Origin: a virus | Direction: 5' to 3' (one strand) | Virus record (IMG/VR): IMGVR_UViG_3300025536_000182 | Length of the DNA stretch: 64,000 bases | Shown: positions 6,961-13,307 of the stretch, piece after piece | How the letters are laid out: each line of letters begins with the position of its first letter | How positions within the stretch are numbered: the first letter of the stretch is position 1 | Translations under genes and position numbers: made by a program | Notes under the pieces: generated by a model | What the model saw: the letters and a program-made list of their open reading frames with translations, nothing else | The model's database searches: none | Told to the model about the DNA's origin: nothing

Positions 6961-7118
6961 TGTCAGTAATCACAAAAGCAAAAAAAGAAGTAATGGAAAA
7001 ATGGCAATCATCTGAAAAATACCCTTGGCAGAAATCAATCAAGGAATTGGACCTGTACATTGAAAGAAAAATAACTCAGGGATACTGCATATGCAATCAG
7101 AGGTGTTCAATTGGTTAG
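6960..7118 (+). CDS. Small hypothetical protein between the TerL halves
   Basis: MSVITKAKKE...CICNQRC; coupled start at 6960. Confidence 0.55.
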   Translation: MSVITKAKKEVMEKWQSSEKYPWQKSIKELDLYIERKITQGYCICNQRCSIG

Positions 7119-7803
7119 CGTATCAATCCATGACCCAGGAGGATGGGCTGACTCTTTTTGCAACGTGATGGCAGAAGTAAACACACATGAGATTCAGCTT
7201 ACAGATGCAATATTTTGGAACAAGATAAAATTTCCAAACCTCACTACAAGAAAAATAAAAGATGACATTGCAAAGCTGAACAGACACTTTCGTTTTGACT
7301 ATCATCTCTGCGAGACAAACAATCAGGGCAACATGATAATATCTGATTTGAGATCAGAGTACAAGATTCCTGTAATTGGAATCACGACATCGGGAGCTTT
7401 GAAGACTGCAAAGGCGCTGAGAAAAGGCTCATCACTTGACAAGGACAAGACAGTCCCTTGGGTTATGAAGTTCATAGAGGATGGAATAATCAAGCTTCCA
7501 AGAACACTGACACCAGGACTCAAAGAGGGAATGGAGCAGATAAAAAACTATGGAGTCTCAAAGTCTGGAAAATATGAGGCACTGTCTGGCCATGATGACT
7601 TTATCAGCTGTCTTGTAATTTTAGTACACTGGGCAAAAAGAAAGATGATAAAATCAATCGCATCAAAGACGATTGGCGTGGGAAGTGGAGACCCATATGC
7701 TGCACTGTCAAACACACCGTATGATATTGCACTCAATGCCATGAAGAAAAGATTTGACAGTATAGGAATGCAGCCAGATAACATCGATGTGTCGTTTCCT
7801 TAG
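7111..7803 (+). CDS. terL: Terminase large subunit, RNase H-like nuclease domain (stand-alone gene)
   Basis: IHDPG...DSF, CETNNQG and GHDDFI correspond to the acidic catalytic motifs of terminase nuclease domains. Confidence 0.85.
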   Translation: MVSVSIHDPGGWADSFCNVMAEVNTHEIQLTDAIFWNKIKFPNLTTRKIKDDIAKLNRHFRFDYHLCETNNQGNMIISDLRSEYKIPVIGITTSGALKTAKALRKGSSLDKDKTVPWVMKFIEDGIIKLPRTLTPGLKEGMEQIKNYGVSKSGKYEALSGHDDFISCLVILVHWAKRKMIKSIASKTIGVGSGDPYAALSNTPYDIALNAMKKRFDSIGMQPDNIDVSFP

Positions 7804-7919
7804 TTCTCTTTTTGCATTCTTCTGATAAAACATCAATTGGTTAATCAGAACATGTGTCCTTATTGCTTTGAGGTTTTACAAAATGATTCCTGCATCGAAT
7901 GCGGATTCAGGAGAACAAA

Positions 7920-9389
7920 ATGAGTGCCGTCAGAAGAACAGCAAAGGGAAAGACTGTCGGAATTGGAATGCCAAATGACATAGAGCAGATAATAAAATCA
8001 GAGCTTGCAAAAATAATAATTCCAACACAGCTAAAGGACCTAAAGGAATATCACTTTAGAAGCCTAAAGACATCCGTAAAAAACTGGCGCAAAGTGCCAA
8101 CAAGATTTGTAACAATATTTGGTGCAGCAGGACCTGAGGACATCCCAGAGACAAAGCTAAAGGTAATCACAGATCATTATTCATCCACGACAAGAAAGGC
8201 ACTGAATGACGCAATACTTGAAGATCCTCTCTTGTCACCGTCAACTGACAGGAGATTCGATTCAATATTTGAGGACGGGTTTCATCTTGAATATGTCGAT
8301 GCAATTGCATACGACCCGATAAACAAAAGGCATCTTACAAAGGAGGAATCAATTGCAAGGTTCGAAATGTCAAAGACAAAGTTTGACGAATTTCTTCAGC
8401 AGCTTGAAACATGGAAAGACAACATACATCTCATTGACAACATGAGGGATTCTGCAGCTGTGTCTTTTGCACAGGGCAATGCAGCATCGCTTATTTCTCC
8501 TGGATTGCATGAGCTTACAAACGGACAGCTTCCTTTCTCAGTTGAGATAATTCACTACTCTGATCTTGGTGACGTCATTGTTGACATCGGACTTACAAAA
8601 CAGATAGTTGCAGTAAAGACAAAGTTTGAGGACAAAAAGATTTGCAGAAAAGACGAGATTGTCTACATTACAAGAAACAAGAGGGGATACAGAAAGGAGG
8701 GCAAGTTCTTTGGAACATCTCCACTTGAGCCGGTGCTTGTAATCTCAAAGTCAATCAAGAGAATATACAACTATGACATTCCAGAAGCTGTAATTGCAGC
8801 ATACATCACAAAGATACTTTTCAGATTCTTTGACGGGGTTGATGAGACAGAGGCAGCAACGTTTATCAGAAATTTCCTGACAACTGGAAAGCTTGCATTT
8901 GGAATGACAAACGTTGAGGGAATCGACGTGGTCCAGCCAAAGGTCGATACTGTAATGATTGACACTTTGGAGAAAAAGCTTGCAGACGTACTGCTGTCAG
9001 TTGTCGGTGTTCCAAAATCAATGCTCAACAGGGAGCACAATCTTAACCGCGACATTGCAACAATAGAGGCAATCCAGTTCATCAAGTTTGTAAGAAAACC
9101 AGACGAGCAGCTAATCGCAGACGAATACGAAACTCAATTGCTCAACGTCTTGCTTTCAATGCATTTCGGAGTTCCACTAAACCAGCTTCCAAAGAGAATC
9201 AAGATTGTAAGAAACATGCCAGACAAAGACCTCGATACTGTGTTTGAAGCTCAGACGAATCTGCAAAGCCAAAAGACCGAAGAGGTAAACTCTGGCAACG
9301 TTGCAACAAATCCTCTTGCAATGTTTGGCGCAGCTGGTGAAACATACAGGGTAAAAAAAGTCGGTGACGAATACATTGTCACAAACTGA
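7920..9389 (+). CDS. Portal protein
   Basis: About 490 aa, directly after TerL and before the gpF-like gene; SVVGVPKSML...IATIE portal-like region; ATG at 7920 is coupled to a 23-aa CxxC ORF (7852..7923). Confidence 0.8.
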   Translation: MSAVRRTAKGKTVGIGMPNDIEQIIKSELAKIIIPTQLKDLKEYHFRSLKTSVKNWRKVPTRFVTIFGAAGPEDIPETKLKVITDHYSSTTRKALNDAILEDPLLSPSTDRRFDSIFEDGFHLEYVDAIAYDPINKRHLTKEESIARFEMSKTKFDEFLQQLETWKDNIHLIDNMRDSAAVSFAQGNAASLISPGLHELTNGQLPFSVEIIHYSDLGDVIVDIGLTKQIVAVKTKFEDKKICRKDEIVYITRNKRGYRKEGKFFGTSPLEPVLVISKSIKRIYNYDIPEAVIAAYITKILFRFFDGVDETEAATFIRNFLTTGKLAFGMTNVEGIDVVQPKVDTVMIDTLEKKLADVLLSVVGVPKSMLNREHNLNRDIATIEAIQFIKFVRKPDEQLIADEYETQLLNVLLSMHFGVPLNQLPKRIKIVRNMPDKDLDTVFEAQTNLQSQKTEEVNSGNVATNPLAMFGAAGETYRVKKVGDEYIVTN

Positions 9390-10182
9390 GATTGTCAACA
9401 TAGTCAAAGTTGTAAAAGCAGCAAAGTCTGGAAAGCTTGAATCAAAAAAGACAGTAGACCACATGAGGTCCAGGACAACTCAGAAAACTATGCAGCTTGT
9501 AAAAACCGCAGAAAGAGAACTAATGCATATAGGAGCTGAGATAGCAACTCTCTTGGACAAAGATCCTGACATTGATGTTGAAAACAAAGTAAAACCAGAA
9601 TTCAGGTCCAGGGTAGGATCAATCATAGCAAATACAGTAAGAGAGTCTTATCTTCTCGGACTGCATTTTGTTGAGAATTTTGAAAAGCAGACCATCAAGT
9701 TCACAGAAGATCAAACTCATAAAATGAACATGCAGATAGATGAGGAGATACAAAGATTTTGGAACAACGTAAAATCAATCCAGGACAAACAGCTAAAGAA
9801 AAAATACGAAACTGAGACCAACATTTTTGGAGCTTCGTTCGGGTTTGATCTTGCAGCAGCTTTTAGCACATTTGCAAAAAACCTGACAGTCTCAATGTCC
9901 TTTCTAGCTTTGGGAGATTCAACAGTACTCTCTAAGAACCAAGCTTACCAGCAGCAGATCAGAGTCGGAAATGTCGGAATCACTGCAACTGCTATACTCG
10001 AAGCTCCAAAAATGATATGGGTATCAGAAAGAGACGGACGGGTATGTCCAGAATGCAAGAATTTGGACGGACTTGTTTTTTCAATAGACGACCCGTCTCT
10101 TCCAAGGCCTGTACGAAGCACGCATTTTGGATGCAGATGTCGATTATTGCCAATTGATGGTGGCAGGGTTTTCAACGCCTGA
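9364..10182 (+). CDS. Minor head protein, Mu gpF/SPP1 gp7-like
   Basis: WVSERDGRVCPEC...PRPVRSTHFGCRCRL signature. Confidence 0.9.
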   Translation: MTNTLSQTEIVNIVKVVKAAKSGKLESKKTVDHMRSRTTQKTMQLVKTAERELMHIGAEIATLLDKDPDIDVENKVKPEFRSRVGSIIANTVRESYLLGLHFVENFEKQTIKFTEDQTHKMNMQIDEEIQRFWNNVKSIQDKQLKKKYETETNIFGASFGFDLAAAFSTFAKNLTVSMSFLALGDSTVLSKNQAYQQQIRVGNVGITATAILEAPKMIWVSERDGRVCPECKNLDGLVFSIDDPSLPRPVRSTHFGCRCRLLPIDGGRVFNA

Positions 10183-10252
10183 TTCTTGAAAAATAAAAAA
10201 CGGTTATTTCTACCAAATTGATTCTCAATAATTTTCAAACCAGATTCATATC

Positions 10253-11521
10253 ATGATTGAAGACAAGCCTCACACTTTGGATCCAAAGGAAATTTCACAA
10301 TTAATCAAGGAAGGAGTTGAACTTGACAACTCTGGAAATCACATGTACATAATGCGTTTTGGATGGAACAACGAATGGAATCAGGCAGCTGATCCTGCAC
10401 CATTCAAAATCAAACCGCATCTTAACGAGAAGCTAAGAAAAGACGCACTTGGAATGCCATATGTTGTTCCGCCATATGGAATGCAAAAACATCTCAGAAA
10501 GAAAAAAGATGCAAAGGAACCAATGACAATCCAAGAGCAGCTTGAAGCCATACTTAACGTCCAGTCAAACTATGCAATTGGTGAAATCCAAGGATCACTT
10601 CAGTATCCGTCTGGAAATGTATGGATGATTATCGACGTATGGCCAGAGTTTCAAGCTGGTGTGGAAAGGGGATATTATCCTGAATTATGTTCTCCTACTT
10701 TTAATTTTATAAAAAATACTCCTGACGGTGTCGAGGATGCGCAGTTTCTAAATCTGCAAGCTGTTCCGAATTCCGGTTATGATCCTGAATATACGCAGAT
10801 ACAGCCTATCTGCAAAAACGGAATAAAGGAATGCATGGCAGAGATGGTTGCATATGGAGCTTCTGGCGGTCTTCTAAAAGCAAGAAAAGAAGGTAAATCT
10901 TTCTCTAATAGAATTATCGGGGCATCAGGAGTTATGAGCGAAGAACAAGGGTCTGAAAAAACTGCCGAAAGCAGAATATCAGATCTAGAATCCGGTATGG
11001 CGGAAATCTCAAAGCGTGTGTCAAGCATGGAACCAAAGCTTGATGCAATAGCTGAAAAGATTCTGAAAGAAAATCCGGCAGCTGATCCACCTGCTGATGC
11101 AGCAATTAGCGGTGCAGCTGGTAAAACACAACTAGAACTTTTGAAAAAAGAGTTAGATCAACTCAAAGAAAATGATGCTACAAACACAAAACTTGTAAAA
11201 CAATTCGAAAAAGAAAAACAAGAGACTGAGAAAAAACTCAGATTAGCACAAGCAACATCAATTGTTGAACGAGTACACAAAAACGACAAGCTTGACGAAA
11301 AAGCAAAGATTGCAAAAATCAACGAGTATGTCGAGATGAAGGATGCAGCTGGAAATCCTAGAGATTTGGAACTTTTGGACAATACTCTGAAATCTGTAAT
11401 TCCAGAACCAACAGAATCATCTGGAATCTCCGGAGCATATGGTTTGTTCAGACCAGAATCAACAACTGAAACAACAAACAGACCAAAGAATTCTGAAATC
11501 ATGGAGGCGATAAGAAGTTGA
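10253..11521 (+). CDS. Prohead protease-scaffold fusion
   Basis: N-terminal ~200 aa has a His (QKHL) and CSPTF...LNLQAVPNSGY, resembling Mu gpI-type proteases; C-terminal half is coiled coil; position fits. Confidence 0.75.
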   Translation: MIEDKPHTLDPKEISQLIKEGVELDNSGNHMYIMRFGWNNEWNQAADPAPFKIKPHLNEKLRKDALGMPYVVPPYGMQKHLRKKKDAKEPMTIQEQLEAILNVQSNYAIGEIQGSLQYPSGNVWMIIDVWPEFQAGVERGYYPELCSPTFNFIKNTPDGVEDAQFLNLQAVPNSGYDPEYTQIQPICKNGIKECMAEMVAYGASGGLLKARKEGKSFSNRIIGASGVMSEEQGSEKTAESRISDLESGMAEISKRVSSMEPKLDAIAEKILKENPAADPPADAAISGAAGKTQLELLKKELDQLKENDATNTKLVKQFEKEKQETEKKLRLAQATSIVERVHKNDKLDEKAKIAKINEYVEMKDAAGNPRDLELLDNTLKSVIPEPTESSGISGAYGLFRPESTTETTNRPKNSEIMEAIRS

Positions 11522-12105
11522 GCTCATTAGGTTCAGTTCTTAACAAATCTGCATCACTCGTAAGAGTGACAGCAATTGTCAAAATAGGGCAATCGTTGAC
11601 ACCAGGACTTGTCTACAGAAATGCAGCAAGAGACTGGAGAAATGCTCCAACCGATGGAAGCAAGCTTGCAAAAGATCTATACTGGAACGAGGAAACAGTT
11701 GCAGTAAACACCAAAGAAGTCAAGATCACTGTCTATGACTTGGAAGGCTTGATGGTCATTGGAAAATCCGATGGCATAATTCCAGTAGGTGGAGAAGTAA
11801 AAGCATCCACCACATCTGCACATGGTGGTCAGTTAATCACCAACCCAGAGCCAACATCTGCATTTACAGCAGCTGACGGTTCGACTGTTGACGGAACTTA
11901 TGGTGCTGAAGAAGCATTGGTAGTTGCAAACAACGTCACCAGAATTGCAGAACTTGTAACAAGGGAAGCAGCAATAAGAACCTGGGTGAAACACACAGTA
12001 GGTCATTACCTTGGACACGAGACAGCACTCCGTGAAAATGGTGAATTGATTGACTCTGTTGATGAAGATGAGGACTGCGTCTTCGTATTGAGGAGGGGCA
12101 AGTAA
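11518..12105 (+). CDS. Head decoration/cement protein (putative)
   Basis: Beta-rich 195-aa ORF between scaffold and capsid genes, the usual position of lambda gpD-like genes. Confidence 0.5.
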   Translation: MSSLGSVLNKSASLVRVTAIVKIGQSLTPGLVYRNAARDWRNAPTDGSKLAKDLYWNEETVAVNTKEVKITVYDLEGLMVIGKSDGIIPVGGEVKASTTSAHGGQLITNPEPTSAFTAADGSTVDGTYGAEEALVVANNVTRIAELVTREAAIRTWVKHTVGHYLGHETALRENGELIDSVDEDEDCVFVLRRGK

Positions 12106-12107
12106 TC

Positions 12108-13307
12108 ATGAACGGAATATCAAAACAACAATCCATTCAAGCAGAAGTTCTTGAAGCGCGACTTGCACAAAACGGTTCAATGCAAAAGTCAGCATTGACT
12201 GTACTTGGAAACAAGATTTACTTGGGAGATGGTCGAGAACATGGTCTTTCCAAAAAAGACATCATGATTCATCTTGATCCTTGGAACCAAGCTCAAATCT
12301 ACGGTGCATCTGGTGAGACAGACAAAATGGACGGACTCAAAATGTTTGGCGACAAATATTATGAGATGTATGGAGACTTCAAAAAAATAGACGACATCAT
12401 ACAGCAATATCCGTACATAACAGCAAACGACATTGTGGTAAGTGGTGCAGCTGGTGAGGCCGCAATCACAAACTATGAGACAATTCGTCAGTCTGGAAAA
12501 CTCGCAGCAGACATCTCAGGACTGCAAAGAATCCTAGAGGATCTAACTGCAGTGAACATCGCAAAGAAAGAAACAACTGACAGATTCAAACATGAATACA
12601 TCAGAAAGACATCCGCAGTACTAACTGCTGACAAAGAACTGGCAGATGACCAGCTACCTGGTGACATCAGACCTGCCTTTGCAGTAGGAGAGTATGAGAT
12701 CTTTGCAGATGGAACATCATACAAGACCAACCTTAGAGATAAGGAGTTGAAGATTGATGTTGCAGCAGAAATTGCAAAAGAGATACCTGGAATGTTTGCA
12801 CAGACACAAGAGGACAAAGTAATTGCATTGGTAAACGCCATTACTGGTAACAACCAGGGCGATTGGGATGCAAGAACATCTGGAATCTTTGATGTCAGAG
12901 CAGCATCACAAATCGACACAGCAGTTGCAGCAGTCAAAGGCTATGGCGGACCTATAGTCTGTCTAATGCCATCTGACACATGGAGACTCTATGAGGACAA
13001 CGTAGGAGAGGGATACTTGGGACAAAAACCAGGTAACAAGACAACACAAACTCCTGACTCCAAACACGGAATGCTCAGAGCAAATCCAAATGTAGAGTAC
13101 TGGCTCAATGATAGCGTAACTACACAAACCTACATCATTGCAGCACTGAACTCGTACATGAAGCACATCCAAGGAATGATTATCAAAACATCATTCAAAG
13201 ATGTTAGAACTGCAGGTCAGACAGAGACTACATTCGAATTCAATTACAACGGTGTATTTGAAGACGAAACAAGTGCGCAATACAAAGGAACATCTGTAGG
13301 AGCATAA
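12108..13307 (+). CDS. Major capsid protein (HK97-fold, inferred)
   Basis: 399 aa; head-module position; followed by a strong T-rich terminator; VCLMPSDTWRLY resembles the capsid A-domain pattern. Confidence 0.8.
   Translation: MNGISKQQSIQAEVLEARLAQNGSMQKSALTVLGNKIYLGDGREHGLSKKDIMIHLDPWNQAQIYGASGETDKMDGLKMFGDKYYEMYGDFKKIDDIIQQYPYITANDIVVSGAAGEAAITNYETIRQSGKLAADISGLQRILEDLTAVNIAKKETTDRFKHEYIRKTSAVLTADKELADDQLPGDIRPAFAVGEYEIFADGTSYKTNLRDKELKIDVAAEIAKEIPGMFAQTQEDKVIALVNAITGNNQGDWDARTSGIFDVRAASQIDTAVAAVKGYGGPIVCLMPSDTWRLYEDNVGEGYLGQKPGNKTTQTPDSKHGMLRANPNVEYWLNDSVTTQTYIIAALNSYMKHIQGMIIKTSFKDVRTAGQTETTFEFNYNGVFEDETSAQYKGTSVGA

Follow-up and report, generated by a model that had tools for sequence, protein, structure and literature searches.

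A G-A-[A/S]-G motif shared by the head proteins of a probable Nitrosopumilaceae virus: likely processing sites of a Mu-like protease-scaffold protein

The viral record IMGVR_UViG_3300025536_000182 was analysed over a stretch of 64 kb, hereafter called the window. It covers a genome of 42,575 bp 1.5 times, with bases 42,576-64,000 repeating bases 1-21,425 exactly, and each site or feature is therefore found again at +42,575. Our analysis focused on the head module of this genome and on a short motif, GA[A/S]G, that recurs in the proteins predicted to be the portal protein, a protease-scaffold fusion protein and the major capsid protein. The genes of the module are as follows (positions in the window; protein lengths in amino acids, aa):

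7111-7803, + strand: terminase nuclease fragment, at the start of the head module
7899-9389, + strand: portal protein, 496 aa (P0001), from PHROG and ESM Atlas matches; upstream of the MuF gene
9364-10182, + strand: MuF-like minor head protein, 272 aa (P0005), from Pfam Phage_Mu_F and PHROG matches
10253-11521, + strand: predicted protease-scaffold fusion protein, 422 aa (P0002), from its AlphaFold2 (AF2) model and AFDB cluster matches
11518-12105, + strand: 195-aa head-module protein encoded between the scaffold and capsid genes, from synteny; no motif
12108-13307, + strand: major capsid protein of predicted HK97 fold, 399 aa (P0003), with an N-terminal extension of ~114 aa

This gene order (portal, MuF, protease-scaffold, 195-aa protein and capsid) is found in the window and in nine related loci (L001-L007, L010 and L012). 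In all of them, the protease-scaffold gene lies between the portal and the major capsid genes, as is the case for prohead proteases.

In one copy of the genome (72 open reading frames, 13,267 aa), GA[A/S]G is present seven times. The 422-aa protein accounts for three copies, and the portal and the 399-aa protein for two each. There are also two near matches, in the MuF-like protein and in the scaffold. The initial annotation had placed all nine correctly. They are listed below, with the site names used in the text:

8115-8132, + strand: IFGAAG, portal N-terminal site, residues 73-78, bordering the conserved portal core
9321-9338, + strand: MFGAAG, portal C-terminal site, residues 475-480, 16-18 aa from the end
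9823-9840, + strand (9823-9843 with the final Gly): IFGASF(G), MuF site, residues 154-160, a near match that is decayed in the window
10850-10867, + strand: AYGASG, site A of the 422-aa protein, residues 200-205, right after the protease domain, at the position of a release site
10913-10930, + strand: IIGASG, residues 221-226 of the 422-aa protein, an exact match specific to the window genome
11105-11122, + strand: ISGAAG, site B, residues 285-290, in the linker between two scaffold helices
11426-11443, + strand: ISGAYG, site C, residues 392-397, a near match 27 aa from the scaffold C-terminus, at the position of a maturational site
12297-12314, + strand: IYGASG, capsid site 1, residues 64-69, inside the N-terminal extension
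12438-12455, + strand: VSGAAG, capsid site 2, residues 111-116, at the start of the HK97-fold body

None of the other open reading frames has a copy, and the initial restriction of the exact motif to the portal, protease-scaffold and capsid proteins was thus justified. The number of copies expected in the genome is 0.36 from composition and 0.59 from per-protein shuffles, and none of 5000 shuffles reached seven, which places the motif far above a shuffled background. As also claimed initially, the codons vary among the copies (GGT/GGC/GGA/GGG for Gly, GCA/GCT for the Ala that follows, and GCA/GCT/TCG/TCT/TCA for the Ala or Ser). The corresponding degenerate DNA pattern is found just at the seven in-frame places and on neither strand elsewhere. 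Thus, the signal lies at the level of the proteins.

The head modules of relatives were analysed on nine contigs, those of the loci cited above, which make ten modules with that of the window. For the capsid protein, 22 homologues at 35-98% identity were gathered from a large protein collection, giving an alignment of 23 sequences; searches with this protein in viral contigs, and by tblastn in phages, gave no match. Across the ten modules and the 22 capsid homologues, the motif is found at the same eight alignment positions, i.e. at both edges of the portal core, in the middle of MuF, at the end of the protease domain, in the scaffold linker, at the C-terminal end of the scaffold and twice in the capsid protein. 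These sites lie amid otherwise variable or indel-rich regions. The conservation in relatives on which the initial proposal depended is thus present, with the position of the motif kept down to 35% identity, and all the copies listed above are family sites except that at 10913. The IIGASG sequence is in no relative, and its column contains unrelated residues in the other family members.

The logo built from 109 non-identical sites has Gly at position 0 (93%), Ala at +1 (97%), Ala, Ser or Tyr at +2 (94%) and Gly at +3 (91%). Position -2 is occupied by Ile, Val, Pro or Leu and position -1 by any residue, and there is a weak preference for Glu, Pro or Lys at +4. Counted with its upstream hydrophobic residue, the motif is present two to eight times per full head module (window and L001-L007) and once in L008, which comprises the capsid gene and downstream genes only; it does not occur in the other proteins of the window and of the eight loci counted. 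Hence, one short consensus is repeated in several head proteins and missing from the other proteins, a pattern of the T4/phiKZ type. In most members of the protease family, further copies are found near positions ~300 and ~400. As judged from these alignments, the motif is a trait of the family.

We analysed the 422-aa protein, whose main elements other than the motif copies are the following:

10253-10861, + strand: predicted prohead serine protease domain, residues 1-203, from its fold and the invariant H80 and S147
10490-10492, + strand: H80, candidate catalytic residue, from its invariance
10691-10693, + strand: S147, candidate catalytic residue, from its invariance
10811-10813, + strand: C187, invariant in a 64-sequence alignment
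10832-10834, + strand: C194, invariant in the same alignment
10934-10936, + strand: invariant ATG of M228, in a disordered linker; candidate internal start of a 195-aa scaffold protein

In the AF2 model, an N-terminal domain (residues 1-180) with predicted local distance difference test (pLDDT) values of 76-94 precedes long helices at residues 238-273 and 289-341. A protease domain and a helical scaffold are thus predicted in one reading frame, which is supported by AFDB matches over residues 12-421. These are to clusters of the Mu-like prophage I protein, DUF2213, XkdF and capsid maturation protease types (E 7e-8 to 4e-5), and Caudovirus prohead protease is also among them. Structural alignment of the N-domain with VIA-align gave T4 gp21 (5jbl) as the sole non-helical match among the top rows, with a Z score of 9.6 and a root-mean-square deviation of 3.1-3.2 A over 128-129 of 164-165 residues (model residues 5 to 173 or 183). 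With Foldseek, herpesvirus proteases and gp21 were listed first, at weak E values (0.03-0.3 for herpes). The initial annotation had proposed a protease domain of ~200 aa with the fold shared by HK97-type proteases and herpesvirus assemblin. The fold of the prohead serine proteases of MEROPS clan SH stands, together with H80 and S147, which are invariant in the 64 sequences; the closest relatives, however, are T4 gp21 and the Mu gpI-like proteins, not assemblin.

At the sequence level, the protein belongs to an orphan family of 106 clusters at 50% identity. The full 422-aa protein matches no Pfam family at E values up to 0.01, and 64 N-domains match none at E values up to 0.1; a Pfam scan of ten distant or fused family members gave nothing relevant. 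The N-domain profile had only chance matches among PDB sequences, no PHROG protease was matched, and no match to a curated sequence model was obtained for Peptidase_S77, S78, S78_2, Mu-like_Pro, DUF2213 or S21. In the alignment of 64 sequences, with identities down to 17%, the sole invariant columns are H80, S147, C187 and C194. A non-significant hhalign alignment with gp21 (probability <1%) placed H80 on H85 and S147 beside S140/S141 of gp21, which we take to be the catalytic residues of that enzyme.

All four motif copies of the protein are in segments that are disordered in the AF2 model (residues 183-208, 213-239, 274-291 and 386-413). At site A, where the pLDDT is below 50, G205 is invariant in 15 sequences. 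This site is found at a fixed distance after the two Cys residues (Cx6C-x2-EL-x-h-x-G-A-A/S-G, with h a hydrophobic residue) in almost the whole 106-cluster family. At site B, G287 and A288 are invariant in the 15 sequences amid indels and unalignable flanks, and the pLDDT is below 50 over residues 274-291. At site C, G394, A395 and G397 are invariant and the third position of the motif is Tyr, Ala, Ser or Phe, with a pLDDT below 50 over residues 386-413. The Cx6C pair itself (C187...C194; 10811-10834) is located 7 residues before the predicted self-release site and might be a disulfide, a metal site or a switch.

The predicted HK97 fold of the 399-aa protein is based on structural comparisons of its model, with Foldseek matches to HK97 heads (E 8e-8, probability 1.00) and VIA-align Z scores of 11-13 to HK97-fold capsids and encapsulins. 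At capsid site 1, A67 and G69 are at least 90% conserved in the 23 sequences, and four distant members deviate. At capsid site 2, full invariance of G113 and A114 is accompanied by at least 90% conservation of A115 and G116. The latter site (pLDDT ~63-66) is preceded by a stretch of variable length and followed by a well-conserved body. In the structural alignments, model residues 128-398 correspond to residues 119-383 of HK97 (2gp1) and model residues 124-399 to residues 170-458 of T5 pb8 (6okb). We take the maturation cuts to be at K103|S104 in HK97 and after residue 159 in T5. Linear extrapolation of the aligned ranges places both on model residues 112-114, i.e. on the invariant G-A. These observations are in line with the initial prediction that removal of 114 aa would leave a subunit of ~285 aa, since the protein has the expected fold and residues 113-114 coincide with the HK97 and T5 cut positions. 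The capsid extension (12108-12437) that is predicted to be cut off is conserved and includes a KIYLGDGR block.

The portal was identified from a PHROG match (E 2.8e-5) and from ESM Atlas feature and structure matches to Portal_Mu/Phage_portal, in which compact portals align with residues ~82-454. A Pfam scan of the portal alignment gave nothing relevant, and its profile had only chance matches among PDB sequences. The two portal motifs, at residues 73-78 and 475-480, thus flank the structural core. The N-terminal column reads IFGAAG, IHGAAG, IFGSSG, IVGAAG, VWAASG, VIGAAG or VYAAAG in the ten portals, with an invariant G78 and a nearly invariant A76; the region upstream is variable, and a conserved DIPETKLK block follows. 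The C-terminal site lies beyond the structural core, which stops at ~450, and has an invariant A478, with F476, G477 and G480 at least 90% conserved. The tail that follows it (9339-9386), predicted to be cut off, has a conserved V-x-x-x-x-D/E-G-x-Y-x-V pattern.

The MuF-like protein was identified by Pfam Phage_Mu_F (E 5.8e-10) and as a PHROG minor head protein. In the relatives, the column of its near match contains an exact motif (LQGAAG, IFGAAG or ISGAAG in L001, L002 and L004) or, in L007, VQGAAFG, which resembles the sequence in the window. The near match noticed initially is thus a true family site, which has decayed in the window genome. Regarding accessibility, the initial expectation that the sites would be in exposed linkers is supported for the scaffold sites, with their pLDDT below 50, and for the portal sites, which flank the core; capsid site 1 is located at a helix break with a pLDDT of ~81 rather than in a disordered loop. 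All the sites are found at the edges of domains.

The departures from the consensus are specific to particular genomes. In L012, a Nitrosopumilus provirus, Ala replaces the first Gly at four scored sites in three proteins (portal N-terminal and C-terminal sites, site A and capsid site 2), and the MuF column, which reads VIASAAGP, may be a fifth such site. In L002, the second position is Ser at two sites. In each of L005 and L007, three sites lack the last Gly and two lack the first. Departures at the same motif position cluster by genome (15 pairs; p ~5e-5 in a column-wise permutation test that is not corrected for the overall divergence of a genome). As far as can be judged from the sequences, the pattern in L012 is a lineage-specific dialect of the motif code. 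That each genome departs at particular positions argues for many substrates co-evolving with one sequence-specific enzyme. All clearly alignable copies in L012 (L012:4047-10963) have the form [V/I]-x-A-A-[A/S/T]-G-P, over three or four proteins.

Outside the head module, the window genome has genes for a TFIIB-repeat (TFB) protein, a DNA methylase, a HerA-like ATPase and an MCM helicase, together with a faint resemblance to the phage-integrase family that falls below threshold (E 3.5e-4; 20.8 bits for a cut-off of 27.1). Relatives of the 422-aa protein are encoded inside a 776-kb Nitrosarchaeum contig and a 74-kb Nitrosopumilus contig, both from metagenome-assembled genomes. Given this gene content and these relatives, we regard the virus as a tailed, and probably temperate, virus of Nitrosopumilaceae, which are ammonia-oxidising archaea. 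The TFB protein, the MCM helicase and the two contigs agree with the archaeal host proposed initially. The 422-aa protein is also found on an 87-kb contig of about two genome lengths; together with the 1.5 tandem copies of the window, this suggests a circular or concatemeric assembly.

In our view, the motif most likely corresponds to the recognition and cleavage sites of the virus-encoded, Mu-like protease-scaffold protein. The enzyme would be the N-terminal ~200 aa of the 422-aa protein, with H80 and S147 as candidate catalytic residues, fused to a coiled-coil scaffold, and the events would take place inside the assembled procapsid. The protease would free itself at site A, after which the scaffold would be fragmented at site B and its last 27 aa detached at site C. 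The capsid extension of ~114 aa would then be removed in two pieces, leaving ~285 aa, and the portal would lose ~76 aa at its N-terminus and ~18 aa at its C-terminus. MuF would be split in the relatives, its site having decayed in the window genome. We infer cleavage itself, the viral rather than host origin of the enzyme, the order of the cuts and the scissile bond. For cuts after the conserved Ala, the predicted products are the following:

portal, residues 77-478 (402 aa)
protease, residues 1-203
scaffold, residues 204-288 (or 225-288 in the window genome), 289-395 and 396-422
capsid protein, residues 115-399 (285 aa)

Scission at GA|[A/S]G is one of at least two plausible registers. In the register A|[A/S/Y], the most conserved residue, Ala, would be at P1, as in assemblin, whereas in the register G|A, the conserved hydrophobic residue would be at P3, as in T4 gp21 and assemblin. 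The Tyr at the third position of site C fits G|A better than A|[A/S/Y].

Other explanations of the motif were considered. It might be a by-product of composition, or a DNA-level signal, devoid of meaning for the proteins. Gly and Ala are indeed somewhat more frequent in the head proteins than in the genome on average, but shuffles that keep the composition of each protein yield 0.07 copies in the portal, scaffold and capsid proteins, compared with the seven observed. The varying codons, the confinement of the DNA pattern to in-frame places in these genes and the retention of the motif in relatives of 35-40% identity with different DNA also contradict this explanation, which we regard as refuted and whose probability is negligible. 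Alternatively, the motif could be an uncut docking or hinge element, e.g. a flexible Gly/Ala turn that binds a common assembly partner. Small-residue G-A-A-G turns are common as hinges, and the flanking segments that cleavage would remove are conserved as if they were still functional. However, a hinge requires neither a hydrophobic residue two positions upstream nor a near-invariant Ala, and it would not recur at the exact cut positions of the HK97, T5, herpes and Mu-like systems. In addition, the departures that co-vary across the proteins of a genome call for one sequence-specific reader. An uncut motif thus appears unlikely.

The reader could also be a protease of the Nitrosopumilaceae host. 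Reportedly, the capsid and scaffold proteins of the staphylococcal phage 80alpha are cut at a shared motif by the host protease Prp, which provides a precedent. Furthermore, all known relatives of the virus infect one host family, and both the conservation of the motif and its lineage shifts could therefore follow the specificity of a host enzyme. We know of no host protease with G-A-A/S-G specificity, though, and a viral domain of prohead-protease fold with invariant His and Ser residues would then have no identified substrates. Site A is also fixed to the end of the protease domain in almost the whole family, as self-release predicts. We therefore consider processing by a host enzyme quite improbable. 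The co-variation of the sites is also compatible with it, as the viral protease lineage and the host lineage change together.

Cleavage by the viral protease remains the preferred explanation, and several observations weigh against it besides this compatibility of the co-variation with a host enzyme and the uncorrected divergence in the permutation test. The sequence profiles of Pfam, PHROG and PDB do not match the protease domain, the catalytic equivalence of H80 and S147 is argued from their invariance and a non-significant alignment, and no third catalytic residue was identified. Capsid site 1 forms no disordered loop, and at site C a Tyr takes the place of the Ala or Ser of the other sites, which would be awkward at P1'. 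Lastly, the segments predicted to be cut off, namely the portal C-tail and the capsid N-domain, are themselves conserved, which implies a function prior to their removal, probably in assembly.

The linker after site A may also harbour an internal translation start. M228 and F217 are invariant in 15 sequences, within a disordered linker that is otherwise unalignable, and in the DNA alignment the ATG and a TTCT are invariant, with TTC-TCT 33 nt upstream of the ATG (10901-10936). A Met residue 30-40 aa after Cx6C recurs in most of the protease family. Since Mu-like phages embed the scaffold gene in the protease gene, and herpesviruses have UL26.5, an internal start at M228 that would yield a nested 195-aa scaffold protein is plausible by analogy. 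The codons of IIGASG overlap a GGAG located 2 nt before the ATG. With a usual spacing of 4-10 nt in this genome, a Shine-Dalgarno role of this GGAG is a weak proposal because of the short distance.

The predicted system shares features with several known ones. In T4 and phiKZ, one motif codes the processing of many head proteins, with several sites per propeptide and self-processing of the protease (PMC9026906). T4 gp21 has an (L/I)-x-E motif, and phiKZ gp175 and SPN3US gp245 have an S/A/G-x-E motif. The N-domain resembles gp21 as its best match among solved structures, and in both cases a short consensus is repeated in many head proteins. Unlike for gp21, with which there is no sequence-profile similarity, the residues around the predicted cut are small and neutral, G-A-A/S-G, rather than glutamate, the protease is fused to the scaffold, and the portal is also predicted to be cut.

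The best whole-protein matches of the predicted structure are to the Mu gpI/gpZ type (Mu-like_Pro, XkdF/Peptidase_S78_2 and DUF2213). The order of the genes from the portal to the major head protein is also that of this group, e.g. of gp28/gp29 of Burkholderia phage KS10. We know of no published cleavage consensus for the Mu group. Mu-like phages have their scaffold gene nested in frame within the protease gene (PMC2628397), an arrangement to which the invariant internal Met228 would correspond. In contrast with the Mu group, no archaeal family member reaches its Pfam models, the hosts are archaea, and an invariant Cx6C precedes site A.

In herpesviruses, the release and maturational sites of UL26 are known, the latter freeing the scaffold from the capsid shell, and UL26.5 is also present (PMC4498786). 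As in the assemblin system (UL26/UL26.5), an N-terminal protease is fused to the scaffold, and the positions are similar, with a release site right after the protease domain and a maturational site near the end (25-37 aa from it in herpesviruses, 27 aa here). Assemblin cuts with Ala at P1 and a small residue at P1', e.g. YLQA-T and VQA-S in pseudorabies virus (PMC4498786), as would apply here in the register A|[A/S/Y]. It differs by its Ser-His-His triad, since only one His of the archaeal family, H80, is invariant or nearly so in the 64 sequences. On structural re-alignment, assemblin chains were not among the 50 matches listed (Z scores of at least 7.3; 9.6 for gp21). Neither the capsid nor the portal protein is cut in herpesviruses, unlike what is predicted here.

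With HK97 gp4/gp5 and T5 pb11/pb8, the system shares an HK97-fold capsid protein with an N-terminal extension and a cut predicted at the same position. The head protease trims the portal in lambda (gpC/Nu3), P2 (gpO) and T5. The archaeal system differs from those of HK97, T5, P2 and lambda by having both a capsid extension and a separate scaffold, and by the family and predicted specificity of its protease. The predicted N-terminal loss of ~76 aa from the portal is larger than in lambda or P2.

Additional features were found in the head modules of the family. The 195-aa protein is syntenic in all relatives, lacks GA[A/S]G, and has no Pfam or PHROG family match. Its slot is that of a small conserved protein in Mu-like head modules, and it might serve for decoration or completion of the head. 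In two loci, a gene for a Peptidase_M10 (matrixin-like metalloprotease) lies between the head and tail genes (L004:13065-13820 and L010:15876-16586). There is none in the window, and a role as the maturation enzyme was rejected, as the gene is missing from the window and most loci. Genes for DnaJ-domain proteins are located upstream of the head module in two relatives (L001:3364-3717 and L006:921-1202). Some members of the protease family (P0062, P0064, P0065, P0098, P0104, P0108 and P0117) reach lengths of 650-1130 aa and carry the protease domain N-terminally. Fusion with further head proteins, which has been described in other thaumarchaeal proviruses, is a possible explanation; alignment of the 1044-aa P0065 with the capsid profile by hhalign covered 15 residues around a motif copy and was not significant.

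In the literature searched, we found no description of the motif or of maturation cleavage in thaumarchaeal viruses. To our knowledge, there is no cultured tailed virus of ammonia-oxidising archaea, and experimental data on head maturation in archaeal tailed viruses are limited to the haloarchaea. A survey of thaumarchaeal proviruses (PMC6563490) has described other protease types, namely S78 proteases and chymotrypsin-like proteases that form fusions with the capsid protein. Systems in which a prohead protease is joined to a scaffold and head proteins carry consensus sites are already known. The new elements are the orphan protease family, its specificity for small neutral residues, the predicted breadth of substrates, including both portal ends and MuF, and the archaeal host. 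As the principle is established in phages and herpesviruses, our findings are an extension rather than a surprise.

It is conceivable, but rather doubtful, that the family is an unrecognised archaea-specific branch of prohead proteases that combines a Mu-like nested gene and an assemblin-like layout with a T4-like code covering the portal and MuF. With Ala|Ala/Ser as the scissile bond, specificity and site layout of the assemblin type would be older than the divergence of archaeal tailed viruses, phages and herpesviruses, and the invariant Cx6C before the release site might then be a redox or metal switch that times self-release.

The recognition code is readable from sequence for few prohead proteases, and small neutral residues would represent a fourth specificity class among these. 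The motif thus provides a readable, concrete and cheaply testable map of head maturation, which overturns nothing. It also provides a simple signature for annotating the orphan protease family and its substrates in metagenomes, and, for a family of 106 clusters that includes Nitrosarchaeum and Nitrosopumilus proviruses, it predicts where the mature capsid, portal, scaffold and protease proteins begin and end.

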